64,000 nt of DNA from Gammaproteobacteria bacterium (GCA_965219665.1 CBDCOD010000019.1:30070-94069), one strand, 5' to 3'; positions 16,411-64,000 are shown, numbered from the stretch's first letter. Notes: generated by a model not told the origin, from the letters alone. Made by a program: numbers and translations.

Positions 16411-16453
16411 AGTTTTTTTATAAAAATTATTCTACTCTCACTATCAGTAGAAT

Positions 16454-16942: not shown

Positions 16943-16976
16943 AAACTCCTTTCAAAAAAACGCCTACGAGCACGTA

Positions 16977-43692: not shown

Positions 43693-43697
43693 GAGTT

Positions 43698-44066: not shown

Positions 44067-44191
44067 TTGACACGGCTCCTATCCGCAGCAAGCCCTGCTT
44101 GCACCACCTAAAATCAGGAATTTTTACCCTTTAATGCTGGCTCGGCACCCTTCAAAAGCTGCCGAGTCTATGCCCATTTTTATTAAAAAAC

Positions 44192-47076: not shown

Positions 47077-47484
47077 ATGCAGGCACGAGGCAGCTGTTTT
47101 TGCGGTAAAGTCCAGTACCAAATAACCGAACATATCGGCATATTTCAATACTGCCACTGCTCACGTTGCCGCAAATTCACGGGCAGCGCACACTCAGCCA
47201 ATCTCATGGTCAACCCACAGCAGTTTGCTTGGCTTAAGGGTGAGCAATACGTAAAACGCCATATACCAACAGAAACCAAACACTTCACTACCTGCTTCTG
47301 TACCGAATGTGGCAGCTCTCTTCCTTGGCTAGCGAAAACAGAAAAAGTCATCGTTATCCCTATGGGCACATTAGACGATAGCATAGACATAATCCCCACT
47401 CAGAATATTTTTTGGGCATCTAAAGCCTGCTGGTACACTGGAACGAATCAACTCCCTAAGCACGACACCCTCCCCACCAAATAA
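47077..47484 (+). CDS. GFA-family (glutathione-dependent formaldehyde-activating / CENP-V-like) Cys-rich protein
   Basis: CFCGKV...CHCSRC...CFCTECG zinc-binding Cys pattern. 135 aa. Confidence 0.55.
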   Translation: MQARGSCFCGKVQYQITEHIGIFQYCHCSRCRKFTGSAHSANLMVNPQQFAWLKGEQYVKRHIPTETKHFTTCFCTECGSSLPWLAKTEKVIVIPMGTLDDSIDIIPTQNIFWASKACWYTGTNQLPKHDTLPTK

Positions 47485-47525
47485 CAGCCTAAACCAAACT
47501 AACTGCCTATAGTCCCCTCATGCAC

Positions 47526-48662
47526 TTAACCTGAGCAGGTCAACTGCACACTACTCTGTATGCTGTAACCCATATCTATCTTACAAATACGGTAATAACG
47601 CGCTATAGACTCCCCTAATATATCCGTTAAGCGCTTATTGATTTTTGACACCACTTCAGATATACGGGGGGATAATTCGTGCTGATCACCTTCACCTACC
47701 CCCCATGTCTTCTTTACATCCTGAAAACGCCCTGCACTAGTAAGTGGCCTTAATAATTTAAGGAACAACGCTGTATCAAAAGCAGTCCAACTGACCCGCT
47801 CATTCACCTCAGTCTTACATAACAACAACTGATAAAAAGCAGCCTGTAGTGGCGGTAACTCCAGTGTTGTACCACCATGCAACATAAAGGACGCTTTCCC
47901 CCTCTCCCAATGAATGCTGGGGGGGTGCTGCATTTGTCTTATATAGCTTTTAATTTCCCCAAAACGCGTAATACGCTGTAAAAACGCTTGCGATAAATTA
48001 TCACGCGCTGACAAAATCGGCAAACTAATCAGTGAAACACGCGCCTCTTTAGCATCTAACGCTTCACCGCTGGCTGTCACAACGGTCTCTTCTCTTGGAT
48101 AATAAAAATCAGAGCACTCATACTGCTTATCAACCAAAACATGCGACAACACATCCTGTGGACGCGCATAAATAGACATTAAATAGCCCAGATAAAAGCT
48201 CATCGTTTTGCGCCCCCCTGCAAGTGAGGCATGCAAAATGCTATCGGTATCAGCCGTAAATTTTTGCACTAAACTGGCAAGCAAATCAGCACATAACACA
48301 CTGTTCTCCACACTATTAACATCCTCAATAATACCATCTGTTGACATAATAGAATGAATCTTAAGCCAATCTTTAGGCATATCCTTTAGCCCAAAATCGG
48401 CACAAAATCGGCGCAAAACACCCCCTTGATCCAGCACACCCAATCGCTGCACACCCACCAGTGTGGTTACCACATGGATCTCAGTTGGTATAAAAGCAGG
48501 CTCTTGCTTAACTAAAGCATACAGTGTCTCCGTAATAACAGATGGACTAACACCTGCCACACACAATAAAATTTTCCGTTCAGTATTCATTTTTAGTACT
48601 GGTTTGCATTCGTATTTACAGCTGGTATTACAGCCCTTTTTATTATCCTGCATTATCGTCAT
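47526..48662 (-). CDS. CARF-domain protein (Csx1/Cas_NE0113-like), C-terminal domain unassigned
   Basis: ILLCVAGVSPSVITETLYAL is the hallmark CARF N-terminal motif, and ASLAGGRKTMSF is the second CARF motif. No obvious R-x4-6-H HEPN motif in the C-terminal ~150 aa. The true start may be the internal Met at 48590. Confidence 0.7.
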   Translation of the reverse strand: MTIMQDNKKGCNTSCKYECKPVLKMNTERKILLCVAGVSPSVITETLYALVKQEPAFIPTEIHVVTTLVGVQRLGVLDQGGVLRRFCADFGLKDMPKDWLKIHSIMSTDGIIEDVNSVENSVLCADLLASLVQKFTADTDSILHASLAGGRKTMSFYLGYLMSIYARPQDVLSHVLVDKQYECSDFYYPREETVVTASGEALDAKEARVSLISLPILSARDNLSQAFLQRITRFGEIKSYIRQMQHPPSIHWERGKASFMLHGGTTLELPPLQAAFYQLLLCKTEVNERVSWTAFDTALFLKLLRPLTSAGRFQDVKKTWGVGEGDQHELSPRISEVVSKINKRLTDILGESIARYYRICKIDMGYSIQSSVQLTCSG

Positions 48663-48896
48663 TCATTACGACAGCAGCAACGTAATTGCAATAACACGTA
48701 TTATCTAAACTATTGCCCCTTCACACCAGCTTTTCAAATAACCACAACATTTCCATCTATTTTGACAACATTGTCCTTTTTTTACAGCAAACTTGCGCTT
48801 ATTGAACTTGCTTCGATGCTCAAGTATAGTGCCGCCCAAGTTTGAGCAGAATACAACTTGCTTCATTTATAAAAAGCCACAACGGAGAAACTCATA

Positions 48897-49682
48897 ATGT
48901 CACAGAAAACCATGTTGCAAAAATTTATACAAAAAAACCTTCACCTAAAAAGATATGCGGCACTCACTATGCTCGCTGGAGCTTTCTTGCTTTCTGGCTG
49001 TGCTGCCATAAAAACCGCAATTGAACACAGTGACTTGGAGGTGCAAACCAAAATGTCTAGCACCATCTTTTTAGAGATAAGTGATACGCTAGAAAAAACC
49101 ATATACGTTGACATCCGCAACACCAGTGACAAGCCCATCAATGTATCTCCAGCCATCCAAACGGCGCTTCAGAAAAAAGGCTACACAATCGTTACTAAAC
49201 CCAAAGATGCCTTTTACTTCTTACAGGGCAACATCTTATATGTCGGCGAAAAAAGCCCCTCTGCACTACAAGACCAAATGGCAGCAGGCTATGGTGCTAA
49301 TGGTGCAGGCGTTGCAACGGGAGCTGCAGTCGGAATTCTGGCGTCTAGATCTGGAAACCGTGGAGAAGCTGCTGTAGCAGGCGCGGTCGTTGGCGGCGCT
49401 ATTGAAGTCATCTCTGGCTCGCTGGTAGAAAACGTAACCTACTCCATGCTAACCGATATTCAAATATCAGAGCGCTCATCCGAAATAGTTGCTCAGACTC
49501 AAGAAAGCAATTTAAAGCAAGGCGAATCCTCCAGCGTGAAGCAAAGCAGTAGTAGGCAAACCAATCGCAAAAAGTACCAAACGCGCATTCTATCCAGTGC
49601 TAACCAAGTCAACTTAGACTGGGAGGCAGCAAGACCCGCTTTAGAAGAAGGCTTAGCAAAATCCATATCAGGTATTTTCTAA
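48897..49682 (+). CDS. traT: TraT complement-resistance / surface-exclusion outer-membrane lipoprotein homolog
   Basis: Lipobox LLSGC, then AIKTAIEHSDLEVQTKMSSTIFLE... and ...KYQTRILSSANQVNLDWEAARPALEEGLAKSISGIF. These parallel F-plasmid TraT nearly block for block ([24 protein letters not shown]... [37 protein letters not shown]). GGAG SD 7 nt upstream. Confidence 0.85.
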   Translation: MSQKTMLQKFIQKNLHLKRYAALTMLAGAFLLSGCAAIKTAIEHSDLEVQTKMSSTIFLEISDTLEKTIYVDIRNTSDKPINVSPAIQTALQKKGYTIVTKPKDAFYFLQGNILYVGEKSPSALQDQMAAGYGANGAGVATGAAVGILASRSGNRGEAAVAGAVVGGAIEVISGSLVENVTYSMLTDIQISERSSEIVAQTQESNLKQGESSSVKQSSSRQTNRKKYQTRILSSANQVNLDWEAARPALEEGLAKSISGIF

Positions 49683-49850
49683 GCCCTATTACGCGATAGC
49701 TTCCAGCGTGTGGTGCTGCTTAAACCTCAAGTTGCACCACACTTTATAAAAGAATACCAACCAAGAGCCATAAGAGGACGATATGACCACACAAAAGTTA
49801 CCACAGCCGCAGGCGATCGGTAACCAACAGCATACAAAAGGAGATATATT

Positions 49851-50621
49851 ATGTCAGAAACACTATTTTTCATTATTTTTATTACACTCTGCATTGTCCT
49901 TGCAATAAAAACCAAAAGCCTGCCCTCAGCAGAGGAGCGGCACAAAATGCGCTTGCAGAAAAACCAGCAAAGACGATTAAGCCATGCTGGCAAAATCAGA
50001 AAAGCAAGAAGAAGCGGCTCAAGCCGTGGAGGAGGGTTAAACCATGTCGGGCTTGGCATGGCAGCGGGTGCAGCAGGATTGGCAGCATACAGCACCCTAT
50101 CCAACAGCGATGATGCTATCGCTTCATCAAACACCTCTACAGCCTTTGATGATAGTTCCTCAAACATCACCAGTTTTGACATAAACCCTGCAAATGGACT
50201 GCCCATGGTGGATGGAATAGGTAGCATAGATATTGGAGGCAATACCTATGGCACCGACTCCGATACCTTTGATGATAGTTCCTCAAACACCACCAGTTTT
50301 GACATAAACCCTGCAAGTGGACTGCCCATGGTGGATGGAATAGGTAGCATAGATATTGGAGGCAATACCTATGGCACCGACTCCGATACCTTTGATGATA
50401 GTTCCTCAAACACCACCAGTTTTGACATAAACCCTGCAAGTGGACTGCCCATGGTGGATGGAATAGGTAGCATAGATATTGGAGGCAATACCTATGGCAC
50501 CGACTCCGATACCTTTGATCATAGTTTCTCATCCTTTGATGACAGCTTTTCATCCTTCGATGACAGCTTTTCATCCTTCGATGACAGCTTTTCATCGTCC
50601 TCTTTTGACGATGATTGGTAA
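49851..50621 (+). CDS. membrane-anchored acidic repeat protein (3 x 41-aa repeats plus SFDDSFSS mini-repeats)
   Basis: N-terminal TM helix, then three near-identical 41-aa units (DDSSSNTTSFDINPASGLPMVDGIGSIDIGGNTYGTDSDTF) and a C-terminal (SFDDSFSS)x3. Confidence 0.55.
   Translation: MSETLFFIIFITLCIVLAIKTKSLPSAEERHKMRLQKNQQRRLSHAGKIRKARRSGSSRGGGLNHVGLGMAAGAAGLAAYSTLSNSDDAIASSNTSTAFDDSSSNITSFDINPANGLPMVDGIGSIDIGGNTYGTDSDTFDDSSSNTTSFDINPASGLPMVDGIGSIDIGGNTYGTDSDTFDDSSSNTTSFDINPASGLPMVDGIGSIDIGGNTYGTDSDTFDHSFSSFDDSFSSFDDSFSSFDDSFSSSSFDDDW
50145..50513 (+). repeat. 3 x 123-bp near-perfect tandem direct repeat (coding), followed by 3 x 24-bp mini-repeats
   Basis: TTTGATGATAGTTCC... recurs at 50145, 50268, 50391 and 50514, a period of 123 bp with 1-2 mismatches per unit. 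Confidence 0.9.
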
Positions 50622-50688
50622 GTTACTTCAAAAAAACCACACTTTTAACCTTAATTTAACGCAAACATCAACCACTATAGGACAAATT

Positions 50689-50997
50689 ATGAATAATCAA
50701 ACTAAAACATCAACAGCGAACTCTACAACACAAGAAACAATAACCGTTCCCCCAAGCAACAATGCATTACCTGCAATTGGAGTAACCGGATTATGTACAG
50801 GGTTGACGCTCGGCATAATGATTATGATCATAGGGCTACAGAATTTCCAAGTCAGTTTACTTGCAGGCTTACCGAGCCTTTTATACGGCGCATTAATTTG
50901 TATCATAGCCATTGCATGGAATGCGCTCTTAAGTGGCTTTGCCACTATGGTTCAAGCGCAAGTGGACATCCGAAACGCCACTGTTTCAAAAAAATAA
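50689..50997 (+). CDS. small membrane protein (about 103 aa, two predicted TM helices)
   Basis: MNNQTKTS... then hydrophobic GVTGLCTGLTLGIMIMIIGL and LPSLLYGALICIIAIAW. The ORF track's longer frame (50479..) overlaps the upstream gene, so an internal start was chosen. Confidence 0.35.
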   Translation: MNNQTKTSTANSTTQETITVPPSNNALPAIGVTGLCTGLTLGIMIMIIGLQNFQVSLLAGLPSLLYGALICIIAIAWNALLSGFATMVQAQVDIRNATVSKK

Positions 50998-51074
50998 ATA
51001 GCACAAGCAAAAAAATTCCAAGTAGAAAAAAAAATAGGCTATCATATAAAAAAATAAATAAAATGTGCTCTACT

Positions 51075-51368
51075 ATGAAAACAATACTCACCACCAGACA
51101 CCCTGCCACTGTGCAATGGCTTGCCCGTCAAGGCATTGCAGCAGAACAGGTCGATCATGTATCGTCTGACAGCATTACCCACCCGGTAAAACTCATTGGC
51201 AATGTCCCTCCAGCCATTGCCGCACAAGTATGCCAGCAAGGTGGCGAGTATTGGCACATTGACCTTGATTTACCTCAAACCATACGCGGCAAAGAACTCA
51301 GCGTTTCAGACTTAGAACAATATAAGGCTAAAATAATCCGCTATCACATTGAACAAATCACCTCTTAA
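51075..51368 (+). CDS. small hypothetical protein immediately upstream of cmr1 (candidate CRISPR accessory, Csx16-like?)
   Basis: About 97 aa starting MKTILTTRHPATVQWLARQG. Positioned as the first gene of the cmr cluster after an A-rich promoter-like region (51000-51060). Family assignment not verifiable from sequence alone. Confidence 0.35.
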   Translation: MKTILTTRHPATVQWLARQGIAAEQVDHVSSDSITHPVKLIGNVPPAIAAQVCQQGGEYWHIDLDLPQTIRGKELSVSDLEQYKAKIIRYHIEQITS

Positions 51369-51382
51369 ACGGCACCAAAACT

Positions 51383-52510
51383 ATGGAATTTATCAATCCT
51401 TTTGCAAACAACACGCTAACGGCAACCTATCAAATCAACACCCCCATGTTTTTAGGCGGTGCCGATGGCTGTGCAGATACCATAACCCCCCAATCTTTTA
51501 AGGGGCTCATGCGCTTTTGGTGGCGCGCATGGCAGTGGCAACATGCCAAGGGCAGCGACGATTCAGAAAAACTGGCTGACCTACACCACAAAGAAGCCCT
51601 ACTCTTTGGCTCCAGCGCACCAAAACCAAACACAAAAGACAAAAAGGAACTCTACGGTCAAGGTGCCTTTACTCCATAATCATTCGCCACGAGGAGCTCG
51701 AAAAACTGACCAACTGAGAACACGCAGAGTAAATTCAAATACCTTGCCTACGGCAATGCAATCGTTCAAAAAAGCAAATCCCGAAAAGGATACATCAAGA
51801 ACGCACAAAAGAACATACGAATCAAAAAAATGCACTTTTAAGCAGTTCAAGCTTACTTTAATAGACACAAGTACAGTTGACAGCTGAAGCATCAAGGCTA
51901 TGATGACGTAACCATAGACGCAACAACTTGACAACGACTTACTTAGACCTAATTGGAACTGGTAGGTAGTCTGGGCAGTCGCAAATCACGCAAAGGTTTC
52001 GGCAGTTCTATTCAGAAATAAGATGATTTTCTCTCACCCGCAGGTAATATCAAGAAAAAGTACTAAATGCACTTCTCAATGCCTACAACCAGATATGACA
52101 TGCGCGCTCCGTATCACTGCATTTTCCAAACTAATAAAATACGTAGCTGGCAGGCAGTGACAAAAAAAAACGACTCAACTGCATTGCTCCGCTTCCTGAC
52201 AAGGTCATTACCTGAAAGAGCTAGAACAAATGAGTGGTGCCTTTCCTCAGGCAACCGCCAAAAAGAAGGCATGAAAAATAAACGTCAACTGCTTGGTCTT
52301 AACGATTAAAGACATTAACGATAAACGATCGTCATAGCGCGCCCGTCTTTTTCCACATTCCATCAACAACAGTTCAAGACCCAAATATACGTTACTTCTT
52401 ATGCCATCAAACATGTACTTCACCCAGCACCTGCGCTCTTTGAGAAAACAACCATAGATGAAAAGAAGGGGCTGGCTGCCGTCAAGAACTATGTAAACAA
52501 TATAGCTCAA
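51383..52510 (+). pseudogene. cmr1: cmr1 remnant (type III-B RAMP Cmr1), disrupted by multiple stops and frameshifts
   Basis: The first 98 codons (51383-51679) carry the Cmr1 RAMP motif ITPQSFKGLMRFWWRAWQ, then terminate. The remaining ~830 bp before cmr2 carries only short ORFs in several frames (51543-51887, 52067-52309). Stops at 51677, 51707 and 51843 lie in the original frame. Confidence 0.6.
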
Positions 52511-52528
52511 ACCACGCAAAATTAAAAC

Positions 52529-54493
52529 ATGACAAAAAAATACTTTCACCTCACCATCGGCCCCGTGCAAGGGTTTATAGCCAGCGCGCGCCGTACCCGC
52601 GATTTATGGGCAGGATCCTTCATCCTCTCCACGCTATCTGCCGTTGCCATGCGCTCCGCTATCGCTCAAGAGAGCACAACAATCATTTTCCCCGCTGCTG
52701 ATAAGGGCTCTCTGCAATGGTTGGAACCCTCTAATACCCAACCTGAACGATTCCCTAACTACCCCAACCGCTTTATGGCAGAAGTGCCAGCAGACTTTAA
52801 CCCCCAAGCCGTAGTTACAGACATCAACGCAGCGTGGCAATCAATCGCCAATGCAGTCTGGACAGCAGACTTTCAAAACGCCAACGCAGAAACCAAAGCA
52901 ATCTGGGATAGACAAGTTGCACATTACTGGGAAATAAGTTGGGTGCTGACAGATGACCGAAAAGACACCAGTGCCTTAGATCGGCGCAAAAACTGGCGCA
53001 GCCACATCCCCCCTGCAGAACCCGGTAATAAATGTATGCTCATGGACAGCTTACAAGAGCTCTCCGGCAGCCTACAGGCAAGCACTATAGAACGACAAAC
53101 ATTCTGGAAAAAACAAGCACAAGTAAGCAAGAGATTAGATATAAGCGCCAAAGAACATTTAAGTGCCATTGCCTACATCAAACGCCGCCTAATCATTGCT
53201 CTTAAAGAAGGTATCCAGGCAGAATTAACAGGATGGCAATTAAACCTCAAAATAAATCCAAGTGATGCCAACGAAGACGACATTCGCTCTCAAGCACCCT
53301 CCACCGCTCACATTGCCGCCGTCGATTGGCTAAAAGCCATTAAAAACAAAATGCAAGATGATCAAACAGCCGAAGAAAAAATCAAAACCAACATCCGTAG
53401 ATTGATCGAATCCATTGAAGGCATACCCCAAACCAATCATTTACTCAAAAGCGAAAGCAATTCGACTCTCATTAAAGACAACAGAAAAAATTCTAACTTT
53501 AATAATCTTAGTTACTGTGAAGCCAGTCTGTTTTATCCACACCTTATCAATTCCCGCTTAGACTTGGAACTCACACCCGACAACGAGCGAAAGCTGCTCG
53601 ACAACCTCAACGCACTATGCGAGCGCGTAGACAAAAAGCCCACTGCCTTTTATGCAATACTGTGCATGGATGGCGACAGCTTTGGGCAATTCCTGAGCAA
53701 CTCACAAAACCACGCCAAAATCAGCAAAGGGCTAAATGCATTCACTAAAGAAGTGCCGAAAATAGTAAAACAACATACAGGCTTCACCCTCTATGCCGGC
53801 GGTGAAGATGTGCTTGCCATGCTCCCCATTAGCCAAGCCATTGCTTGCGCCCATAAGCTGCAACAAGAATTTACTGCAATTTTTCAAAGTAAGCTGAATA
53901 AGGGCGGAGAGAACGTACTGCCCACCATCAGCGCCGGCATCGTCTTTAGCCACCTCAAAATGCCGCTGATGCAAAGCATAAGCCGCGCCCATGAGGTCTT
54001 AGACGACATTGCCAAAGAACAAACCGGGCGTAATGCCATCGCCTGTGAAATCAACAAACCCTCTGGTCGTACCGCACAATGGGCAATGCCTTGGGACAAG
54101 GCAGCCGATGACGATGATAACAGCGCTATGATGATTAGCACTATTAGCGAGACATTAAAAGAGAAAAATCAAGCCGATGCCTCTTTTTCTACCAAATTCC
54201 TCTATCACTTTCGCAATAGTTATCACTTATTCAAAGATAAGAACAGCCATGAGGCAATAAGCAAAGATCTGCTCACTGCCTTAGTGATCAGCAACCTACA
54301 ACAAAGCAAAGGGCGCGCTGCTGAACTCAGCGCAGCAGAACAAAAACTTGCCAAACAAATCATCGATCAATCCTGGATTTATAAATCAGATAGCAAAGGG
54401 CAGCCCATACAAAGCGACCAAATAAGTGATGCCTTCGTAATGCTCGCCCGCTTCTTAGCCACTGATGGCATAGACGGAGGGAACCGCACATGA
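52529..54493 (+). CDS. cmr2: Cmr2/Cas10 lacking the HD nuclease domain, with a cyclase palm domain carrying GGED
   Basis: N-terminus LTIGPVQGFIASARRTRDLWAGSFILSTLS is the conserved Cmr2 D1 block. Palm motifs ILCMDGDSFGQF (about 53666-53690) and YAGGEDVLAML (GGED at 53801-53812). 654 aa, consistent with Cmr2 minus the ~215-aa HD domain. Confidence 0.85.
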   Translation: MTKKYFHLTIGPVQGFIASARRTRDLWAGSFILSTLSAVAMRSAIAQESTTIIFPAADKGSLQWLEPSNTQPERFPNYPNRFMAEVPADFNPQAVVTDINAAWQSIANAVWTADFQNANAETKAIWDRQVAHYWEISWVLTDDRKDTSALDRRKNWRSHIPPAEPGNKCMLMDSLQELSGSLQASTIERQTFWKKQAQVSKRLDISAKEHLSAIAYIKRRLIIALKEGIQAELTGWQLNLKINPSDANEDDIRSQAPSTAHIAAVDWLKAIKNKMQDDQTAEEKIKTNIRRLIESIEGIPQTNHLLKSESNSTLIKDNRKNSNFNNLSYCEASLFYPHLINSRLDLELTPDNERKLLDNLNALCERVDKKPTAFYAILCMDGDSFGQFLSNSQNHAKISKGLNAFTKEVPKIVKQHTGFTLYAGGEDVLAMLPISQAIACAHKLQQEFTAIFQSKLNKGGENVLPTISAGIVFSHLKMPLMQSISRAHEVLDDIAKEQTGRNAIACEINKPSGRTAQWAMPWDKAADDDDNSAMMISTISETLKEKNQADASFSTKFLYHFRNSYHLFKDKNSHEAISKDLLTALVISNLQQSKGRAAELSAAEQKLAKQIIDQSWIYKSDSKGQPIQSDQISDAFVMLARFLATDGIDGGNRT

Positions 54494-55572
54494 ACAACAC
54501 CATGCAAACCACCCACATCACCCTCACCCCCAACGACAGCCTGTTCTTTCGTGAATCCCGCCCTATGGAATCAGTCGGCGGCGCTATCCTAGAAAGCCAG
54601 TTTCCACCCAACCCCCAAACCCTTATTGGCGCCCTAAAAGGCTATGTTGGCGAGCAATATGGTGTGGACTTTAAAACCGTTCGCGAAAACACTAAAAAGG
54701 GCAAGCCCTATACAAAAGAGGGCTTCACCATGGACTTTGGTGACAGCAACGCAGACCTCTCCATAACCGATATGGCACTACGCCATCAAGACACGGGCAT
54801 AGGCACAGACTACTACCCTGCCCCTCTCTTTGTGGCTTACAGCGAAACCGATAAGCAATATGCTCTCATTCAACCCAGTGCGCAATCAACTGAATGCGAT
54901 TTAGGCAACGTACACTTACCCACCCTCCCTAAAGAGAAGACGGGCTATAAACCCTTAGAAAACGCTTGGCTGAGTAGTAAAGACTACACCAATGTCCTTC
55001 AAGGCAAACTGCCCACGAGCCACCTTAAAAAAAGCGCCATCCTTAAGGATGAGTTTCATCTTGGCATCAGCATTGACAAAGAGAGCAACACCGCAGAAGA
55101 CCACAAACTCTATCAAAGCATGCACACCCGCCTCAAGCAAGGCATGCAGCTGCATCTCACGCTCCGACACCGTAAAGACATACAAATCAACAACGGAACC
55201 ATCCGCTTAGGCGCAGAAGGAAGAAGTGCCCAACTCACAATCATCGAATCGCCCGAAAGCATCACCTCCACCCCTAAAAATAACAAAATAAGCCTAATCT
55301 TAACCACCCCCGCACTGTTCAAAAACACAGACGCACTGCATGAAGCAATAGCGCAATACGGCACCCTGATCAGCGCCTGCTTAGGCAAAACCACCCGAAT
55401 GGGCGGCTGGAATTTAGCCCAAAATCAACCACGAGAAGCCATCTCAGCCATTCCCGCTGGCAGCACGTGGTTCGTTGAGGCAAGCCCTAACGCATGCCCC
55501 CCTGCCGCCATTGGCGAGCAAACAACTAAAGGCTTTGGCATCGTCCGTTGCGGCACCTGGCAGCACCTATAA
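54490..55572 (+). CDS. cmr3: Cmr3
   Basis: N-terminus LTPNDSLFFRESRPM...SQFPPNPQTLIGALKG is typical of Cmr3. C-terminal G-rich loop TTKGFGIVRCG. ATGA overlap with cmr2. Confidence 0.8.
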   Translation: MNNTMQTTHITLTPNDSLFFRESRPMESVGGAILESQFPPNPQTLIGALKGYVGEQYGVDFKTVRENTKKGKPYTKEGFTMDFGDSNADLSITDMALRHQDTGIGTDYYPAPLFVAYSETDKQYALIQPSAQSTECDLGNVHLPTLPKEKTGYKPLENAWLSSKDYTNVLQGKLPTSHLKKSAILKDEFHLGISIDKESNTAEDHKLYQSMHTRLKQGMQLHLTLRHRKDIQINNGTIRLGAEGRSAQLTIIESPESITSTPKNNKISLILTTPALFKNTDALHEAIAQYGTLISACLGKTTRMGGWNLAQNQPREAISAIPAGSTWFVEASPNACPPAAIGEQTTKGFGIVRCGTWQHL

Positions 55573-55597
55573 ACACCCCAAAATTGAGGAATATAAT

Positions 55598-56443
55598 ATG
55601 AAAAACACCATACTTGGACTACACGCACAAACCGCCATCCACGCAGGATCAGGGCAATCATTGGATGTCATCGACCTCCCCATTCAGCGCGAAGCCCACT
55701 CAGGCTACCCCGTTATCTTTGGTTCATCGCTCAAAGGCGCCCTGCGCGCCCATGCTGACCACAACAACGCTGAACACCTCAGCACCATCTACGGTTCAGA
55801 AAATGCGGAACACGCCAGCGCCATCCGCATCAGCGATGCCAAGCTCATCGCCCTGCCGGTGCGCTCACTCACCACCCACTTTCGCCTTGTAACCTGCCCA
55901 CACCTCTTAGAACGCCTCAACCGCGACCTCGCCCAAATTGGCAAGAATACATTAGAAATACCCAGCGTTAAAAATGAAACTGAGATTCGCACCGCTGATC
56001 AAAAAGATCAAACAAACCTATTCTTAGAGGAGTACCGCTACACCGTACGCACCTGTGGGAAACTACCGCACTGGCAACAACAAATAGCGGAACTCACCGG
56101 ACAAAACAGCGAACAGTTAGCAAACCTATCCGTCATCTCCAATGACCAGTTTGCTCACATCTGCCAAACCGCCACTGCCATTGCCCCACACATTGCCATT
56201 GACAATAAAAACAAAACCGTCAAAGGCGGCGCACTCTGGTTTGAAGAAACCCTACCCCCCGAAACGCTCCTCTACAGCCTCATCAGCGCGGTTGATGCTC
56301 GACATAAAGACACAACATTAAAAGCGACTGAAGTGCTTAACGCATTCAAGCAGCCTCTAACAGAAAGCTATCTCCAAGTCGGCGGCAACGAAACCGTGGG
56401 CATGGGTTGGTGCAAGGCGACGGTAACTGGAGGTGCACAATGA
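55598..56443 (+). CDS. cmr4: Cmr4 (backbone RAMP, target-RNA cleaving subunit)
   Basis: MKNTILGLHAQTAIHAGSGQSLDVIDLPIQRE...IFGSSLKGALRAHA are the RAMP G-rich and catalytic-loop motifs. The start was chosen at the ATG at 55598, which has a GAGGA SD; the ORF track begins at 55475. Confidence 0.9.
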   Translation: MKNTILGLHAQTAIHAGSGQSLDVIDLPIQREAHSGYPVIFGSSLKGALRAHADHNNAEHLSTIYGSENAEHASAIRISDAKLIALPVRSLTTHFRLVTCPHLLERLNRDLAQIGKNTLEIPSVKNETEIRTADQKDQTNLFLEEYRYTVRTCGKLPHWQQQIAELTGQNSEQLANLSVISNDQFAHICQTATAIAPHIAIDNKNKTVKGGALWFEETLPPETLLYSLISAVDARHKDTTLKATEVLNAFKQPLTESYLQVGGNETVGMGWCKATVTGGAQ

Positions 56444-56838
56444 GTAATACGATTACACCCCAAACCATTGAGCAACAGCGCGCAGCGTTTGCATACCAAT
56501 TAGTCACAGCTCATAAAAAGAACGATCGACTCAAAGCCTACGCCCGTAACCTACCAGGCATGATACTCACCAACGGCTTTGGGCAAGCCATGGCGTTTTG
56601 CCTATCTAAAAGCGGCAAGAATAACAGCAATGAAGAACAAGCCTATACAGCCCTGCAACAAGGCATCTTTGAATGGCTTGGGGCTGAACCGCAAAAACTG
56701 CTTAATGGTGGCTCAGACATCGTTGCCGCCATTACTGAACTTGACCAACACCGATATCAACTCGCCACTGCCGAAGCCCTTGCTCTATGCAAATGGATCA
56801 AGCAACTCGCCACCGCTCTCATTGAAGATACAGACTAA
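56440..56838 (+). CDS. cmr5: Cmr5 (small alpha-helical subunit)
   Basis: About 132-aa helical protein between cmr4 and cmr6. ATGA overlap with the cmr4 stop. Confidence 0.7.
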   Translation: MSNTITPQTIEQQRAAFAYQLVTAHKKNDRLKAYARNLPGMILTNGFGQAMAFCLSKSGKNNSNEEQAYTALQQGIFEWLGAEPQKLLNGGSDIVAAITELDQHRYQLATAEALALCKWIKQLATALIEDTD

Positions 56839-56867
56839 AAACACCGACTAACCCAACTTCTAAGAAA

Positions 56868-58126
56868 ATGCCCATGTCAAACCCATCAATGTTGCCACTA
56901 CACAAATCTTGTAAAGACGCAGCCAAGCAATTAGATTCACACCTTGGTCTCTCAGGTTCACACCTTGGTCTCTACTTTGATAAATACTTCTCCTACTCCC
57001 GCTCTCCAAATAATAACATTGAAGCCGCACCTGAAAACAAAAAAGAATTTCTAAAAAAATTCAACAAAGCTAACATCCCACCATCGCTTGAAAATGCCAA
57101 CATCAATCAAGTACGACTCATCCAAAAATTAAACGGCACATTCAAAGCCTTCAAAACCACCTCCTCCTTTGTAACCGGCATGGGGCAAGATCACCCCTTA
57201 GAAAATGGCTTTGCTTTTCACCCCACCTACGGCACCCCCTACCTCCCCGGCAGCAGTGTCAAAGGCATGCTGCGCCACTTCTTTACCCACCACTACCAAT
57301 GGGGAAATGAAGATAAAGCAACATTCCTCAACCAAGTATTCGGCAGCGATAATCCCAAGCAACCCGCCATAGGAAACTACCTGTTTTTTGATGCCCTCCC
57401 TACCGAGACCGTCACAATGCACACCGAAATCATGACCCCGCACTACGGCGATTGGTACGCAAAAGGAGGCGACAAAACAGAAAATACAAAAAACGACACA
57501 TCATCCCAGGCGATTGGCACGAACCAATCCCTATCCAATTCCTTGCTGTCAAAAACGCCACCTTCCTCTTTGCCATCGCCCCGCGCAATGGCACAACCGA
57601 GCAGCCTGACTACCTCTCCTTTCTCTTTAAAGGACTCGACTGCATCCTCATGCACCTTGGCGCTGGTGCCAAAACTGCCACCGGCTTCGGTTATATGGCT
57701 TTTAATGAAGAACAAACTGAAAAATCAGAAGAAAATGCGCTAACCCCCGAAGAAAAGAAAGAGCGCGAGCGAAAAATTGAAGAGCAGAAGCAAAAAGAGA
57801 TTAAAGAGAATGCATGGAAAGAAACTAAAGCAAAAGAACAGGCAGAAGCAGCAAAGCGAGCAGCATTTGACAGCACCCTATCTACAACAGATAAATGGTT
57901 TTTAGAGAAAAACTATGCAGAATGCTCTCCAGATGGCGATGCCCTGGTTTTCAAAATAACCAAGCCCAACAAGGCACTCAAAGACCCTGACTTATCCTCA
58001 AATTTTGAGTTAAAGAAGGCGGTCATTGAAGTCATACAGGTGCATAAAGAAAAACCCTATTCCCACACCTTCTGGGACAAAACAATACGCAAAAAGGTCA
58101 ACGATTCACTCAAAAAAATGAAATAA
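56868..58126 (+). pseudogene. cmr6: cmr6 with an internal frameshift (two overlapping reading frames, 56868-57743 and 57452-58126); it carries an unusual ~170-aa charged C-terminal extension
   Basis: Frame A has the RAMP block YGTPYLPGSSVKGMLRHFF. Frame B has the C-terminal G-rich loop HLGAGAKTATGFGYMAF. The frames switch between 57447 and 57517, where a 9-bp direct repeat GGCGATTGG flanks a 62-bp segment. Confidence 0.75.
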
Positions 58127-58191
58127 TCCTGAACACATAAAAGCAATACGCCATAATGCTTATGCTCAATGCACACAGCTATTAACCAACT

Positions 58192-59127
58192 ATGAACTTA
58201 GAACTTATGCAACTAATAGAACAATTCGGCTTTAGCCTCTTCGTCTTCGCTTTAATCACCCTTCTGCTCATCTACCTCCTGATGGGCATAAAAATCGTAC
58301 CGCAAGCACAGCAATGGGTTATTGAGCGATTAGGCTCCTACAATCGCACCTTAGACGGTGGGCTCAACTACATCATACCCATCGTTGACTCTACACGCGC
58401 CAAATACCAAACACAAGAACAAGTCATTGACATTCCCTCGCAGCGCGTTATCACCCGTGATAACGTTTCCATCTCTATTGATGGACTCGTATTCATCCGC
58501 ATCACCAACGCCAAACAAGCCATCTATGGCGTATTAGACATGCGACACGCCATCTCACAATTGGCACAAACCACGCTCCGCTCCGAAATTGGCAAAATGG
58601 ACTTAGACGACTCCCTCTCCTCACGCGACCACCTTAACGCCGCACTCCTCACCGCATTAGATAATGCTGCAGGTGGCTGGGGTGTCAAAGTAACGCGTGT
58701 AGAAATATCTGACATTGACGTACCCAGCGAAGTCAAAACAGCCATGGAACTGCAACTGCGCGCCGAGCGCGAACGCCGCGCCACTGTTACCAAAGCCGAA
58801 GGCGATAAAAACGCCGCCATTGCTCAAGCCGAAGGCGAGCGGCAACGTGCCTTTAAAGAAGCTGAAGCTATTGAGCGCACGGCAGACGCTAAACAATATG
58901 AGCAAATTCAACTTGCCGAAGGACAAAAGCAAGCGATGGAACTCATCAACCTGGCAATGGAAAACAACCCCCAAGCTGCCGATTTTTTACTTGCAAAAGA
59001 CCGCATCAAAGCCTTCAATGACCTTGCCAAAAACACCAGTCAAGACAAAGTTATCGTACCGTACGAAGCCAGTGCCCTCGTTGGCGCACTCTCAATTATC
59101 ACTGAGAACCTTACTAATAAAAAATGA
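58192..59127 (+). CDS. SPFH/band-7 (stomatin/paraslipin-like) membrane protein
   Basis: N-terminal TM helix, then KIVPQAQQWVIERLGSYNRTLDGGLNYIIP, the canonical SPFH start. C-terminal Ala/Glu-rich coiled coil. 311 aa. Confidence 0.85.
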   Translation: MNLELMQLIEQFGFSLFVFALITLLLIYLLMGIKIVPQAQQWVIERLGSYNRTLDGGLNYIIPIVDSTRAKYQTQEQVIDIPSQRVITRDNVSISIDGLVFIRITNAKQAIYGVLDMRHAISQLAQTTLRSEIGKMDLDDSLSSRDHLNAALLTALDNAAGGWGVKVTRVEISDIDVPSEVKTAMELQLRAERERRATVTKAEGDKNAAIAQAEGERQRAFKEAEAIERTADAKQYEQIQLAEGQKQAMELINLAMENNPQAADFLLAKDRIKAFNDLAKNTSQDKVIVPYEASALVGALSIITENLTNKK

Positions 59128-59555
59128 CCACTCTACTCATCCCAGCTATACCCGCGTGGTATCTCATCATCATCGGCATAGCCATTGTTGGTGTTGAACT
59201 GTTTTTCATGAACCTATTCGTCATACTCTGGTTTGGACTGGCAGCCATATTCATTGGTGCCCTCAACTTATTTTTACCCTTTTCTCACGGCGAATATCAA
59301 CTACTACTCATTGCACTAATCGGCAGCACTGCCCTGTTCATGTATCATAAAAAATACAAACCATCACGCACCAAAAATAAACACTTAGACTCCTATACTA
59401 CAGGTGGAACAGGTAGCGTAATCACCACTAATCAAGGCATTAAAATCAATTATCAGGGAACGCTCTGGAGCATTGCCCCACCAGCCCCCACCAACCTAAA
59501 AGACGGCGACAACGTCATCATCAAAGAAATCAAGTCCAATCAAGTCGTTTTATGA
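59124..59555 (+). CDS. NfeD-like short-form membrane protein (partner of SPFH proteins)
   Basis: Three hydrophobic helices, then a C-terminal OB-fold-like region (GTGSVITTNQGIKINYQGTLWSIAP...GDNVIIKEI), as in YuaF/YbbJ. ATGA overlap with the SPFH gene. Confidence 0.7.
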   Translation: MTTLLIPAIPAWYLIIIGIAIVGVELFFMNLFVILWFGLAAIFIGALNLFLPFSHGEYQLLLIALIGSTALFMYHKKYKPSRTKNKHLDSYTTGGTGSVITTNQGIKINYQGTLWSIAPPAPTNLKDGDNVIIKEIKSNQVVL

Positions 59556-60589
59556 TTCTCATATCACTGATTGGACCACAAATTCTCCCCAATATTTTTG
59601 CGCTCCGACACTACGGCAATGAAATCAGCAAGCACTTCATACTCTGCGATAAAAACCCTAAAAATCTGGCAGCTGCCCAATTGCTTAAAGATTTTTGTGA
59701 ACCAAGCGGCATGCCAACCATCGTCATAACAGCCAACCTCAAACAAGCCCACAGTTGCTACAACGTTTGCTGCCAAATCATTGAAGACAACCGTGCCGTG
59801 CAAACCATTCTCAATGCCACCTGTTCGCTCAAAACTGCCGCTCTTGGTGCTTTCATGGCAATGCAACAGCACAATCAGCGCACCATCTATGTTGACGGGC
59901 AAAGAATCCAACGCGTCCACCACTCAGAGGATCACAACACCATCGCCCCTATTAAAGCCCGCATCAGTATTGCAGACTACCTACAAGCATACGGCTTTAG
60001 CATCACACCCTCTACCCAAGACCACACCATAGGGGAAAAATTTGGCAACTACCTCTTCGACGACAACTTGCTCAGAATATGGATGAGGGATAGTAAATAC
60101 ACCCCCCACGAACGGATTGCAAAATGGCTCAGAAGCAACAACATACTCGCAGGCAACCGCACGATAAAACCTGAAAAACGGGCATGGTATTCTGGCACCT
60201 GGTTTGAGCAATGGGTCTATGTCACACTGAAAAAACACTTTGCAAAAAATCCTGCTGTATCCGACATTTGTAGCAGCTTTAAGGTGAAAAAACATGCAGA
60301 AAATGAAATAGACGTTGCCTTTGTTCATAATAACATCCTGCACCTGATTGAATGCAAAGCAGGAAAGCCCGAAAAACAAAGCCAAGAAGGCCTGCGCTTC
60401 TCCAGCGTTGCTGAAACCATTGGTGGCACCTACACCAAATGCGCCGTACTATTTTTGCGCCCAACAAAAGACACCATAAAAGAACGCGCCAGCGACACCA
60501 CCAACTTACACTACATTGACAACATTGAAAACACAACCGACTTATGCACCAAAGTAGATCAATGGCTTGAAAAATCAAATTTCTCATGA
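59552..60589 (+). CDS. CARF + PD-(D/E)xK nuclease (Can2/Card1-like cOA-activated nuclease)
   Basis: N-terminus MILISLIGPQILPNIFAL is the CARF strand-1 motif. The C-terminus has E...IDVAFVHNNILHLIECKAGK at 60311-60360, i.e. D...E-C-K. 345 aa. ATGA overlaps on both sides. Confidence 0.7.
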   Translation: MILISLIGPQILPNIFALRHYGNEISKHFILCDKNPKNLAAAQLLKDFCEPSGMPTIVITANLKQAHSCYNVCCQIIEDNRAVQTILNATCSLKTAALGAFMAMQQHNQRTIYVDGQRIQRVHHSEDHNTIAPIKARISIADYLQAYGFSITPSTQDHTIGEKFGNYLFDDNLLRIWMRDSKYTPHERIAKWLRSNNILAGNRTIKPEKRAWYSGTWFEQWVYVTLKKHFAKNPAVSDICSSFKVKKHAENEIDVAFVHNNILHLIECKAGKPEKQSQEGLRFSSVAETIGGTYTKCAVLFLRPTKDTIKERASDTTNLHYIDNIENTTDLCTKVDQWLEKSNFS

Positions 60590-61452
60590 ACCCCAAAAAC
60601 AACCCGGCACAAAACTTTAAGCTAAAAAATGCACTCACTAGCACCTTTGGCAGTCTGGACCTAACAACCATAGGAATCGCCATACTCCTATTAGCACTTA
60701 TTGGCTGGAGCGCAGACAGCCTACTCAACACCCTCACCTTTAGCATAGCTTCCCCCTTAACGCACCTTAGCATAGCAGCACTATCACTCGCTGCCTTATC
60801 CCTTCTTATAAAAATACTGCATAAAAAAGCACAAGGCATAGGCAACAACCTCCTCATTGAAGCCACCCAAAACAAACCCAAACGCTTAGATGCCCAAAAC
60901 CTTATTTTTATCGTATCGCCTGCAAGGCACTTTGCCGATATAGATAAAAAACTACAATGCCCAGATACACAAAAAAACCTACAAGAATTGATAGAAGAAG
61001 AATCCACAGAAACGAAACCGACTACACAACCCAAAAAAAAATACCAATGGTATATGCCCTATAGCACCATCAAAGAACATCAGCCCAAAAACATCTATCC
61101 CATCTTTACTTCAGGCGAATATGGCAGCAGTAAACAAAAAGAGACTTTCTTAAATCTCTTTAGAGGCATATTCCCCGACAAAACCATTCATGATGCAGAT
61201 TATCAAACCCTACAATCCACCGATTTGACTGAGCTATCCAAAGCCTACGACAAGATAGAACAAAAAGTTCTCAACGACGACAAATACCGCCCCAACCAAA
61301 TTCTCGTTGATGTAACAGGCGGTCAAGCCTCCATGAGCGCCATGCTCGCTGTCAACTCCACCATTGATGATGCCATCATCAGCTACGTGGACACCAATGA
61401 CTATAAAATTCACTACTTTGACTTTCGCAGCCACAACCCATCAGAAGAATGA
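60586..61452 (+). CDS. two-TM membrane protein with a C-terminal CARF domain (Cam1-like membrane effector)
   Basis: Hydrophobic helices at about aa 27-48 and 58-80. The C-terminal ~180 aa has the CARF-like motifs LIFIVSPA and ILVDVTGGQASMSAM at 61301-61340 (D-x-T-G-G-x-x-x-M). 288 aa. Confidence 0.55.
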   Translation: MNPKNNPAQNFKLKNALTSTFGSLDLTTIGIAILLLALIGWSADSLLNTLTFSIASPLTHLSIAALSLAALSLLIKILHKKAQGIGNNLLIEATQNKPKRLDAQNLIFIVSPARHFADIDKKLQCPDTQKNLQELIEEESTETKPTTQPKKKYQWYMPYSTIKEHQPKNIYPIFTSGEYGSSKQKETFLNLFRGIFPDKTIHDADYQTLQSTDLTELSKAYDKIEQKVLNDDKYRPNQILVDVTGGQASMSAMLAVNSTIDDAIISYVDTNDYKIHYFDFRSHNPSEE

Positions 61453-62297
61453 ATGCCTTCCTCCCGCTATTCAAAATCCAAATAACCCTTACAGCCCTAT
61501 CCTCTATTACATTTCGCACTCCCCATCACAACATCATTTTAGATGCCTTCCTACGCTCACTCCTCAGCCAAGAGCAAAAAAAACAATACGCCACCACGCT
61601 TATCATCAGCCCCCAAACACCAATCCAAGCCATCACATACGGCAACGCCTACACCTTTAACATCACAGCCATTAACAATGCCCTTCTGCTTAGCCGGCTA
61701 CTATTCCAACTCAAATCCTTACCATTCTCTGCCCGTATTCGAGACACAACAGCCCCGCTACGCCACAACCTCAAATTCCACCAAGCCACCTGTATGCACA
61801 CAGGTCATAAAGCCAACAGCATTAAAGACCTCACCCCAATCCAAGCCATAGACCTTGAAAACAGAGCATTAGAACTCGCCTCGCATAGCCAGCTCCCCAT
61901 AACCCTAAACTTAGCACGCCTCAAAAAAAGCCACCTTAAAAAAACCAGCAACACCGAACAAAACTTCGCCCAAAACAGCACCGAACTAACCGCTGAACTC
62001 CTATTAGAGCGCATCAACACCACCATAAGCCACCTACACCGTGCGCTCAACATAAATGCCACACCGCAGCCCCCTCTTCCTACAGCCACCACAACAACGC
62101 AATACTGCAAATGGATAAACCTACCCTACTTTGACAAAAACAAGCAGGAAAAAACATGCGGCGGACTCAACGCACAACTCACGCTAAGACCGCAAAACTG
62201 GTCATTGGACCACTACCGCCAACTGGCACTGATTGAACACGTAGGCATTGGACAACGCCGCACATCTGGTTTTGGCACGCTCACCATCAACGCATGA
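61449..62297 (+). CDS. cas6: Cas6-like RAMP endoribonuclease (standalone)
   Basis: C-terminal glycine-rich loop HVGIGQRRTSGFGTL (G-h-G-x5-G-h-G) typical of Cas6. 282 aa. ATGA overlaps with its neighbours. Confidence 0.55.
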   Translation: MNAFLPLFKIQITLTALSSITFRTPHHNIILDAFLRSLLSQEQKKQYATTLIISPQTPIQAITYGNAYTFNITAINNALLLSRLLFQLKSLPFSARIRDTTAPLRHNLKFHQATCMHTGHKANSIKDLTPIQAIDLENRALELASHSQLPITLNLARLKKSHLKKTSNTEQNFAQNSTELTAELLLERINTTISHLHRALNINATPQPPLPTATTTTQYCKWINLPYFDKNKQEKTCGGLNAQLTLRPQNWSLDHYRQLALIEHVGIGQRRTSGFGTLTINA

Positions 62298-64000
62298 AAA
62301 TTCCCCTACCGAAACTACCTTCCCAGCAAGCCCTCAGCGTTGACCTCCAGTTTATACAGCCCCAAAATCTTCCACTCTACCATGAACCTGTTATTCAAAA
62401 TGCACTCAAGGCACTCACCCGCCAACTGCTCCCCTCAAACACCTCCACCCCTTTTACCCTCATCTGCCCCGAAAGCGCCCGCACCCACTATCCTGCAAAC
62501 ACCTCCTACTACTTTTGCATAATCAGCCTCAGCATAGACTCCATACAACCCCTCTGGCAGCAACTCATCATCAAACTGCGCCAACTCCCGATAGAATCAA
62601 CGCCCTTTATCAAAAACTGCACCCTCATATCGCTACGAAACCTCTTAGACGGCACGCCCGTATCCAATGCCCAATCCTTAACCCAATACACCTTTGACTT
62701 AGCACTATCGCAAGCAACAGACTGGCGCAACACACAAACCACAACCCTTAATTGGCGCTGGATTAGCCCTGCCCATACCCCTATCGGCAACACCTTATGC
62801 CGCGATAAAACCGAGCTATCTGCCAAACACCTCTGTGAACAAATCGCACACAGCCTATACGATCTCATCCAGCACAATAACAGCACCGAAACAAACCACT
62901 TATTTCATCTATGGACTCAATCCCAGTACAAGCATATAGCAATACATAAAGCCGATCTATATTGGATAGACACCCCTTATCACCCAAATCAAACCAATTT
63001 CTCTGGCATATCAGGTAACTTTACATTTAGCCTGTCTGAAGAGGCCCCCACCAAATTATTAGCCCTCATCATCTACGCTCAGAATATTGGCATTGGCCTT
63101 AATTACCAAAAAGGATTTGGCAAATACCGCCTCTCAAGCCCAAACGATACGTACTTCTCCACACTATCCAACCACTGCATGCCCATCACGCGCTGTGAAT
63201 CATTGCTCAAGCACTTTACGCACCCCCAAATGATTGAACGCGCCATTGCAGAATTAGAGCAAAAACCCAACATCGACAAGCTCAGCGACAAAACCCATGC
63301 CCAAATACAATCTGCCATTGGTCAAGTTCGCAAACAAGATTACACCCCTCCTAATTTATTTGGGTTCACCACGCCTAAAAAAGACGGCACCGACCGCCTA
63401 CTCGCTGTCGCTCCCCTATATGATCGCATCCTACAAAAAGCCTGTGCCATCGCACTCACACCCACCTTAGAAGCTATCATGAGCCAAGCCTCCTTCGGCT
63501 ACCGCAAAGGACTATCACGCCAGCAAGTCCGCTATGCTATTCAGCAATACTACAGGCAAGGCTACAAGTGGGTCTTGGAATCCGACATTGATGATTTCTT
63601 TGACTCCATTAACCGCACGCTACTCATCAATCGCCTTGCCAGTTTTTTTGGCCCTGACCCACTATGGAACCTCATGGAACAATGGCTCAACAGACCCATA
63701 ATCTATCAAGGGCACACTATCCAACGTCCCGATGGCATACCACAAGGCTCACCTCTCAGCCCACTACTAGCAAACTTTATTCTGGACGACTTTGACTCTG
63801 ACCTTGAAGCCTATGGTTTCAAACTCATTCGCTTTGCTGACGACTTTGTTATTCTCTGCCGCTCTAAATCTGAAGCCATAGAAGCACGCAGTGCCGTAAC
63901 GAAACATCTCAAAGAAATCAATCTCAAACTCAATCCAGAAAAAACCCACATTAGCGAAATAGACCACGGGTTCCGCTTTTTAGGTTACCTTTTCCACGAA
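62294..64000 (+). CDS. Cas6-reverse transcriptase fusion (N-terminal part of a Cas6-RT-Cas1 protein), truncated by the window end
   Basis: Manual translation finds no stop from the ATG at 62294 to 64000. The N-terminal ~330 aa end in a second Cas6 G-rich loop, NIGIGLNYQKGFGKYRL. After that come RT motifs: RLLAVAPLYDRILQ, QGSPLSPLLANFIL and the catalytic box FADDFVIL. Absent from the ORF track because it is edge-truncated. Confidence 0.8.
   Translation, partial: MKIPLPKLPSQQALSVDLQFIQPQNLPLYHEPVIQNALKALTRQLLPSNTSTPFTLICPESARTHYPANTSYYFCIISLSIDSIQPLWQQLIIKLRQLPIESTPFIKNCTLISLRNLLDGTPVSNAQSLTQYTFDLALSQATDWRNTQTTTLNWRWISPAHTPIGNTLCRDKTELSAKHLCEQIAHSLYDLIQHNNSTETNHLFHLWTQSQYKHIAIHKADLYWIDTPYHPNQTNFSGISGNFTFSLSEEAPTKLLALIIYAQNIGIGLNYQKGFGKYRLSSPNDTYFSTLSNHCMPITRCESLLKHFTHPQMIERAIAELEQKPNIDKLSDKTHAQIQSAIGQVRKQDYTPPNLFGFTTPKKDGTDRLLAVAPLYDRILQKACAIALTPTLEAIMSQASFGYRKGLSRQQVRYAIQQYYRQGYKWVLESDIDDFFDSINRTLLINRLASFFGPDPLWNLMEQWLNRPIIYQGHTIQRPDGIPQGSPLSPLLANFILDDFDSDLEAYGFKLIRFADDFVILCRSKSEAIEARSAVTKHLKEINLKLNPEKTHISEIDHGFRFLGYLFHE

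Follow-up and report, generated by a model that had tools for sequence, protein, structure and literature searches.

What is the element that follows gcvP in a 64,000-nucleotide stretch of DNA from a Gammaproteobacteria bacterium (GCA_965219665.1, CBDCOD010000019.1:30070-94069; hereafter, the window), is it still functional, and did it reach this site by recent horizontal transfer? A description made from the sequence alone (the sequence-only reading) had proposed that at about 47.5 kb the gene content switches from core metabolism to plasmid-like cargo and a type III-B CRISPR-Cas island that was acquired horizontally. We conclude, with a probability of roughly 0.78, that 47.5–64 kb holds a type III-B (Cmr) CRISPR-Cas locus that is chromosomal and belongs to the Cas6-RT-Cas1 kind (RT, reverse transcriptase), that the host is a Thiomicrospira-group gammaproteobacterium, and that cmr1 and cmr6 are broken in this strain. 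Genes were called by combining an open reading frame (ORF) listing with Pfam, NCBIfam, and PADLOC profile searches across the window, and the locus was compared with near-identical sister strains from ENA metagenome assemblies (L009/L023 and L020; 97–99.6% identical to the window), with a related locus from a Thiomicrospira metagenome-assembled genome (L004), and with two related genomes (L021 and L022). The genes are the following (aa, amino acids).

42601–46993: gcvT, gcvH, and gcvP, the upstream flank.
47077–47484, + strand: GFA-family gene (PF04828, E = 5e-26), the left boundary and not a cas gene; present at the same site in sister strain L009.
47526–48590, − strand: CARF5/Cas_NE0113 protein, 354 aa (PF09623, E = 2e-30; TIGR02584, 163.9 bits with a cut-off of 80.65; PADLOC CARF5--CARF, E = 3.6e-78).
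48897–49682, + strand: TraT-type outer-membrane lipoprotein of the surface exclusion/complement resistance family (PF05818, E = 8e-73).
49851–50621, + strand: membrane-anchored repeat protein, 256 aa (Tandem Repeats Finder: 3.2 copies of 123 bp, then 3.2 copies of 21 bp, in frame).
50689–50997, + strand: hydrophobic protein, 102 aa (ORF conserved and called in L020; without Pfam family).
51075–51368, + strand: Csx16 (PF09652, E = 2e-23, 82.5 bits with a cut-off of 25; TIGR02620, 68.7 bits with a cut-off of 46.35).
51383–52522, + strand: cmr1 pseudogene (N-terminal fragment at 51383–51679 matches TIGR01894).
52529–54493, + strand: cmr2/cas10 without HD domain (PF12469, PF22335; TIGR02577, 154 bits with a cut-off of 79.4).
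54490–55572, + strand: cmr3 (PF09700, E = 7e-51).
55595–56443, + strand: cmr4, backbone RAMP subunit (RAMPs, E = 2e-22; 45% identical to Cmr4 of L004).
56440–56838, + strand: cmr5 (PF09701, E = 3e-29).
56868–58126, + strand: cmr6, frameshifted (TIGR01898 split over two ORFs).
58192–59127, + strand: SPFH/Band 7 (paraslipin-type) membrane protein (PF01145, E = 9e-38).
59124–59555, + strand: NfeD-like small membrane protein, a usual companion of SPFH genes (55–57% identical to the gene after SPFH in L021 and L022; no Pfam match of its own).
59552–60589, + strand: Can2/Card1-type effector, CARF4 plus PD-ExK nuclease (PF23400, PF09002; PADLOC CARF4--CARF_PDDEXK, E = 4e-45).
60586–61452, + strand: membrane CARF effector, transmembrane (TM) region plus CARF (PADLOC 'TM+CARF', E = 5e-20).
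61449–62297, + strand: stand-alone Cas6 (similar to the Cas6 domains of Cas6-RT-Cas1 proteins; weak TIGR01877 and PADLOC Cas6 matches at the G-rich loop).
62294–64000 and past the window end, + strand: 5' part of cas6-RT-cas1 (RVT_1, E = 3e-39; FADD motif).

Seven ATGA start/stop overlaps tie the genes of the locus into operons, five of them forming an uninterrupted chain (SPFH/NfeD, NfeD/card1, card1/TM-CARF, TM-CARF/cas6, and cas6/cas6-RT). The profile searches bear out the gene content that the sequence-only reading had given from 47.5 kb onward: cmr genes, CARF genes, Cas6, and Cas6-RT are all present; the three CARF proteins are CARF5, CARF4-PDDEXK, and TM-CARF in PADLOC naming; the claimed HD-less cmr2 yields PF12469 and PF22335 and no HD domain; the claimed cmr1 remnant is a heavily decayed pseudogene in which TIGR01894 matches the N-terminal fragment alone; and the string quoted as a C/A-rich run lies at 54508–54534. 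Two features were absent from that description, namely the GFA gene between gcvP and the first cas-associated gene and the SPFH/NfeD pair within the operon, and its listing of cmr3–6 stands for cmr3, cmr4, and cmr5 but not for cmr6, which it took as intact and which carries a 4-nt frameshift deletion. All components belong to described families (type III-B Cmr, Csx16, Can2/Card1, Cam1-like, and Cas6-RT-Cas1), and the locus is a sequence-divergent new example of a described system type. What is unusual about it is that cmr1 and cmr6 are eroded, that the sister strains have reciprocally lost RT-Cas1, that an SPFH/NfeD pair is embedded in it, that it has an additional stand-alone cas6, and that Cmr6 is extended at its C-terminus.

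Is the effector module still functional? Three-frame translation revealed that the first ~98 codons of cmr1 are open and that stops and frameshifts occur in all three frames from there to cmr2; in tblastn with the intact Cmr1 of L009, homology was recovered only in fragments spread over the frames. Compared with the sister strains, 51.5–52.5 kb has 69–85% nucleotide identity and ~40 indels, while both flanks are 98–100% identical. Because the synonymous divergence of the flanking genes between the strains is just 0.5–4%, the 3' part of cmr1 has diverged far more than decay at this site after the separation of the strains could explain; judged from these alignments, it looks like an older, already dead allele within a recombination mosaic. 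In the case of cmr6, positions 3–132 of TIGR01898 match in one frame and positions 126–194 in another, and alignment to the intact 411-aa gene of L020 places the disruption at a 4-nt deletion at ~57498 that shifts frame 0 to frame 2. This gap sits in a short patch with several substitutions and not in a homopolymer run; a 21-bp in-frame duplication is found near the start of the gene (~56937–56978). The sister strains have intact versions of both genes, with a cmr1 of 351 aa in L009/L023 and 354 aa in L020 and a cmr6 of 417 aa and 411 aa, respectively. Judging by what is known of the P. furiosus Cmr complex, a system deprived of Cmr1 and Cmr6 should be severely impaired in capturing its target and, hence, in cyclic-oligoadenylate signaling; the effector complex and its signaling are probably non-functional in this strain.

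The order cmr1-2-3-4-5-6 with all six families recognizable is shared with P. furiosus Cmr1–6. In contrast to that complex, cmr1 is decayed and cmr6 frameshifted, Cmr6 is extended by ~140 aa, and Cas10 has no HD domain, its start coinciding in the alignment with that of the HD-deleted P. furiosus Cmr2 construct. The palm motif of Cmr2 is GGED where P. furiosus Cmr2 has GGDD; GGED is found in all three strains and GGDD in the relative L004. GGED is listed among the Cas10 palm variants from loci with effectors and was judged likely active (PMC11229360). We also observed that the Cmr6 extension past the GFG loop (57700–58126) comprises a Lys/Glu-rich helix and a small domain and matches no Pfam family; part of it is conserved in L004.

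The sister strains carry the reciprocal defect. Both lose homology to the window at 62338, 45 nt into cas6-RT-cas1, and continue into unrelated DNA; because 45 nt of the gene are retained, their ancestor had cas6-RT-cas1. A collection that includes the 67.5-kb L020 contig and a 1.56-Mb genome yielded no further protein with above 48% identity to the RT fusion, and for this reason we consider RT-Cas1 to be truly missing in these strains. In L020, the region after the breakpoint (14147–20936) encodes a phage-type integrase, a NucS_C-domain (NucS-like) gene, and an AAA_13/SMC-like gene of at least 872 aa; no array was found in the 6.8 kb downstream of the breakpoint, and the integrase region may be another mobile or defense element that replaced RT-Cas1. 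Because the sister strains keep cmr1 and cmr6 but have lost RT-Cas1 at a shared breakpoint, the locus is being eroded and reshuffled in the population. The alleles also form a mosaic: the 3' part of cmr1, the middle of cmr2, cmr5, and the 5' half of cmr6 (51500–54000 and 56500–57500) each group the strains differently, with L009 matching L020 and not the window in cmr1 and cmr5, while in the middle of cmr2 the window matches L020 and not L009, which carries a long (KND)n expansion there. This pattern points to recombination with diverged alleles. The (Lys-Asn-Asp)n run in Cmr2 of L009 (10620–12830) derives from a 9-nt tandem expansion and is accompanied by a duplicated segment near the C-terminus, giving a protein of 736 aa compared with 652–654 aa in the other strains. 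Per-gene ratios of non-synonymous to synonymous polymorphism between the three strains involve too few differences to interpret.

What, then, is the adaptation module that this strain has kept? The window holds the first ~567–569 of the 950 codons of cas6-RT-cas1, with a predicted gene end near 65,146. The sequence-only reading had placed Cas1 in parentheses behind Cas6-RT, and a protein search settles the matter: a 950-aa protein (P0243) that is 100% identical to the Cas6-RT part encoded in the window carries RVT_1 and Cas1 domains and can be aligned along its entire length to the Thiomicrospira Cas6-RT-Cas1 of known structure (PDB 7KFT, E = 1e-284), placing Cas6, RT, and Cas1 in one polypeptide. 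This fusion is at most 48% identical to any other among 5.8 billion clusters, genome and metagenome scans with Cas6-RT recovered homologous loci at 38–47% identity, and the relatives of the cas proteins of the locus are 35–47% identical. In the homologous loci, a fusion of 976–983 aa is followed by cas2 (present in L007) and then by an array of 35-nt repeats ending AGCCGAAAGGCTGTTAAGAC; for the Thiomicrospira Cas6-RT-Cas1/Cas2 locus of 7KFT, a 35-bp repeat has been published (PMC8102632). As claimed earlier, the window itself is free of a CRISPR array, based on Tandem Repeats Finder, Rfam, a direct-repeat search, and a search with the repeat 3' half over the whole 64 kb; in the latter, the conserved 3' half of the related arrays, AGCCGAAAGGCTGTTAAGAC, had no match in the window with up to 3 mismatches. 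Given this gene order in the homologous loci, an array past 64 kb is plausible, and by analogy cas2 and the array likely lie just beyond the window, perhaps with a repeat ending like ...GTTAAGAC.

The locus shares with the Thiomicrospira (7KFT), Marinomonas mediterranea, and Vibrio type III-B RT-Cas1 loci the three-domain protein, the FADD motif, and a type III effector module; it differs from them in the extra stand-alone cas6 directly upstream and in the absence of the fusion gene from the sister strains. Stand-alone Cas6 is 28–36% identical over ~280 aa to the Cas6 domains of Cas6-RT-Cas1 proteins from related loci (E down to 3e-28). As a separate observation, it (61449–62297) shares only 26% identity with the Cas6 domain of the neighboring fusion (62294–63150; 125 aa aligned, E = 0.03) and, thus, is closer to foreign Cas6 domains than to that of its own neighbor.

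The accessory genes indicate which signal an intact version would use. The CARF5 protein is a predicted cyclic-oligoadenylate sensor with a C-terminal domain of ~130 aa beyond CARF that has no family assignment and whose sequence pattern tentatively recalls a winged helix; a single-sequence AlphaFold2 model of the protein was unusable (mean confidence score, pLDDT, 39.5). A homolog of this protein in L012, a JGI metagenome contig (451–1143; region 13413–14561, reverse strand), adjoins a Cas6-RT-Cas1 locus, contains an in-frame stop, and is possibly another decaying accessory gene. The Can2/Card1-type product matches Can2 (PDB 7bdv, 2.8e-15), VC1899 (1xmx), and Card1 (6wxw), and its translation contains a D...ECK motif. 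Like the cA4 (cyclic tetra-adenylate)-activated nucleases Can2 and Card1, it has an N-terminal CARF and a C-terminal PD-(D/E)xK domain; unlike them, it is divergent, with matches mainly within the nuclease domain. The TM-CARF protein belongs to a small family (62 representatives at E < 1e-3) and had neither a sequence-level match in PDB nor a homolog found on plasmids. Its AlphaFold2 model, built with 53 homologs (pLDDT 83), has helices at residues 7–86 and an alpha/beta domain at 90–283, and the best PDB folds are the Cam1 CARF domain (8t65/8t66, TM-score 0.66–0.71) followed by Crn1 ring nucleases and Can2. Cam1-like membrane CARF effectors have been described (PMC10808066 and the Cap1 preprint), and Cam1 (PMC10808066) resembles the modeled protein in having N-terminal membrane helices, a C-terminal CARF domain, and a type III locus as its context, in addition to being the top fold match; the two differ in sequence (12–14% identity) and in length (288 aa compared with ~206). 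We predict that TM-CARF is a Cam1-like effector that, by analogy, would bind cA4 and depolarize the membrane. Finally, Csx16 is 100% identical in all three strains and is a family reported as a ring nuclease degrading cA4 (PMC12409355). Judged from this accessory set, the messenger is most likely cA4.

Taken together, an intact version of the system would be expected to operate as follows. Cas6 would cut the array transcript to generate CRISPR RNAs, and Cmr1–6 with a CRISPR RNA would bind a matching foreign transcript, upon which the HD-less Cas10, with its GGED palm, would make cyclic oligoadenylate, most likely cA4. This messenger would activate the Can2/Card1 nuclease, the Cam1-like membrane CARF protein (leading to membrane depolarization), and the CARF5 protein, while Csx16 would degrade cA4 and so reset the response. 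Cas6-RT-Cas1, together with Cas2 encoded outside the window, would take new spacers from RNA and DNA. Several points weigh against this scheme and against the conclusion that it is broken here. The cas2 gene and array of this genome are deduced from homologous loci; the loss of function is read from the assembled sequence; the need of Cmr for Cmr1 and Cmr6 is taken from the P. furiosus complex; the activity of the GGED palm is predicted; and some Can2-family and CARF5 proteins respond to cyclic hexa-adenylate (cA6) as well (PMC12825302).

How did the locus come to lie here? The sequence-only reading had taken the C/A-rich, G-poor coding strand of the cmr genes to suggest horizontal acquisition. 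The bias itself is confirmed: for + strand genes, the median third-position C is 0.39 in the island and 0.24 in the core (Mann-Whitney p = 1.8e-5), the third-position GC skew is −0.57 compared with −0.215 in + strand core genes (p = 2e-4), and cas6 and cas6-RT contain 13–14.5% G while their homologs elsewhere are much less skewed. The inference drawn from it is weak, because the bias exaggerates one that runs along the strand throughout the window and because the native-looking SPFH/NfeD pair shares it, so that composition is no proof of recent transfer. Specifically, the + strand is C-rich across the whole window whatever the gene orientation, with third positions in which C exceeds G in + strand genes and G exceeds C on the coding strand of − strand genes, NE0113 included; the cumulative GC skew falls monotonically over 1–64000, consistent with a strong replication-strand bias; and gcvP is intermediate in composition.

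These data allow the alternative that resident DNA became C-rich and G-poor under a mutational or selective regime that is local and strand-specific, and that the composition is no sign of a foreign origin; we consider this possible, if on balance unlikely. The SPFH/NfeD pair tracks host taxonomy and yet has a third-position C of 0.41, compared with 0.18–0.20 in its L021 and L022 orthologs, in line with such a regime; however, a related donor could have supplied this pair along with the cas genes, the shift is large and touches third-position GC content as well as skew, and it ends abruptly at the L020 breakpoint, beyond which the integrase has a third-position C of 0.12.

The opposite alternative, an intact and working type III-B island that was acquired horizontally in the recent past and inserted immediately after gcvP, appears improbable to us. 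It would account for a third-position composition significantly unlike that of + strand core genes, for the plasmid-type TraT gene, for a right end that varies between strains and in L020 has an integrase, for the low identity of the cas protein relatives, and for SPFH orthologs in related species that have no cas neighbors. However, cmr1 is a pseudogene and cmr6 is frameshifted, and the strand bias has the same sign window-wide, with gcvP intermediate. Moreover, no strain without the locus, and hence no empty site, was found among the three available strains, all of which share the gcvP–GFA–NE0113 junction (more distant relatives were sampled around SPFH only), and neither a tRNA nor an integrase nor a direct-repeat boundary occurs in the window, the only integrase being that of L020 past its breakpoint. 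The "core" flank may itself not be native: GcvP (44192–46993) has no relative above 63% identity outside the species, the best being 60–63% identical and mostly from Rhizobiales (Alphaproteobacteria), and the gcvTHP operon may have been laterally acquired. Insertion behind gcvP may nevertheless have occurred, and, given that this CRISPR locus includes TraT and differs between strains at its right end, transfer at some past time is still likely.

It is very improbable that the locus is intact and that the lesions in cmr1 and cmr6 stem from assembly or sequencing errors, e.g. a mixed-strain consensus. Although the window probably comes from a metagenome-assembled contig and the defective stretches are the most strain-variable parts of the locus, the 8.7-kb flank differs from L009 by 32 substitutions and 2 gaps while ~0.9 kb of the cmr1 3' part has ~40 indels and 15–31% mismatches, a divergence too localized for random error, and the cmr6 shift is a 4-nt gap amid substitutions and no homopolymer slip. 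Because no other long ORF across the 64 kb is interrupted and there are just two gaps relative to L009 over 8.7 kb, we regard both defects as real, leaving a small residual chance of an assembly artefact.

Among the unusual points of this partly broken chromosomal type III-B locus is the SPFH/NfeD pair. The SPFH gene starts 65 nt past cmr6; the pair hardly varies across the three strains, the SPFH gene showing 9 synonymous and 2 non-synonymous differences. Its nearest SPFH relatives are 60–83% identical and track the taxonomy of Thiomicrospira, Galenea, and Thiomicrorhabdus. The arrangement of SPFH followed by a small NfeD-like protein corresponds to the paraslipin/QmcA-NfeD (YbbK-YbbJ type) pair, and the two proteins are 79–83% and 55–57% identical to those of L021 and L022, where the orthologous pairs lie in a housekeeping context without cas neighbors and the L021 NfeD copy has a faint PF01957 mark. 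In contrast to such housekeeping pairs, the pair in the window is embedded between cmr6 and card1 and is ATGA-coupled to the downstream cas genes. The regions flanking SPFH in L021 and L022 are not syntenic with the window. We also considered that SPFH/NfeD might be a recurrent partner of Cas6-RT-Cas1 and rejected this, the pair being absent from all 18 related loci fetched; SPFH/NfeD in CRISPR loci finds no mention in the searchable literature, including a survey of type III accessory genes (PMC6546367). The simplest reading is that this is a housekeeping pair around or beside which cas modules were assembled. It is much less probable, in our estimate, that the pair was co-opted to act in the type III response, scaffolding or restraining the membrane CARF effector in a membrane microdomain.

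Regarding the cargo, the TraT protein is ~44% identical to TraT of conjugative plasmids, in agreement with the description of these genes as plasmid-like. We rejected a plasmid origin of the island as a whole: the 16.5-kb island had no megablast match among 72,556 plasmids, and TraT alone has plasmid relatives. The 123-bp repeat noted in the sequence-only reading is present (50143–50531, 3.2 copies, 98% matches) but is not the only tandem repeat, as had been claimed; Tandem Repeats Finder also reported a 21-bp repeat with 3.2 copies at 50529–50596 and three short two-copy repeats. The length of the repeat protein changes between the near-identical strains by gain or loss of 123-bp and 21-bp units, from 256 aa in the window to 208 aa in L009 (8161–8787) and 277 aa in L020 (1702–2535), which suggests a fast-evolving surface or exclusion protein. 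A TraS label for this protein was discarded, as the Pfam match covers the low-complexity repeats only. In the upstream part of the window, the GC content rises from ~41 kb, and a 635-aa WD40 beta-propeller protein is encoded among the core genes (38494–40401, − strand).

What does this locus add? To the catalog it contributes a divergent Cas6-RT-Cas1 that shares no more than 48% identity with those known, along with a full set of cA4-type accessory genes, namely Csx16, Can2/Card1, a Cam1-like protein, and a CARF5 protein. If SPFH/NfeD recruitment were true, CRISPR systems would gain their first SPFH-type accessory module, a hypothesis that is cheap to test for researchers working on membrane CARF effectors. 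Above all, three near-identical strains have complementary defects, a broken effector with an intact RT-Cas1 in one case and an intact effector with RT-Cas1 deleted in the other; together with the mosaic alleles of cmr1, cmr2, cmr5, and cmr6, they provide a natural snapshot of the loss and reshuffling of a type III system.

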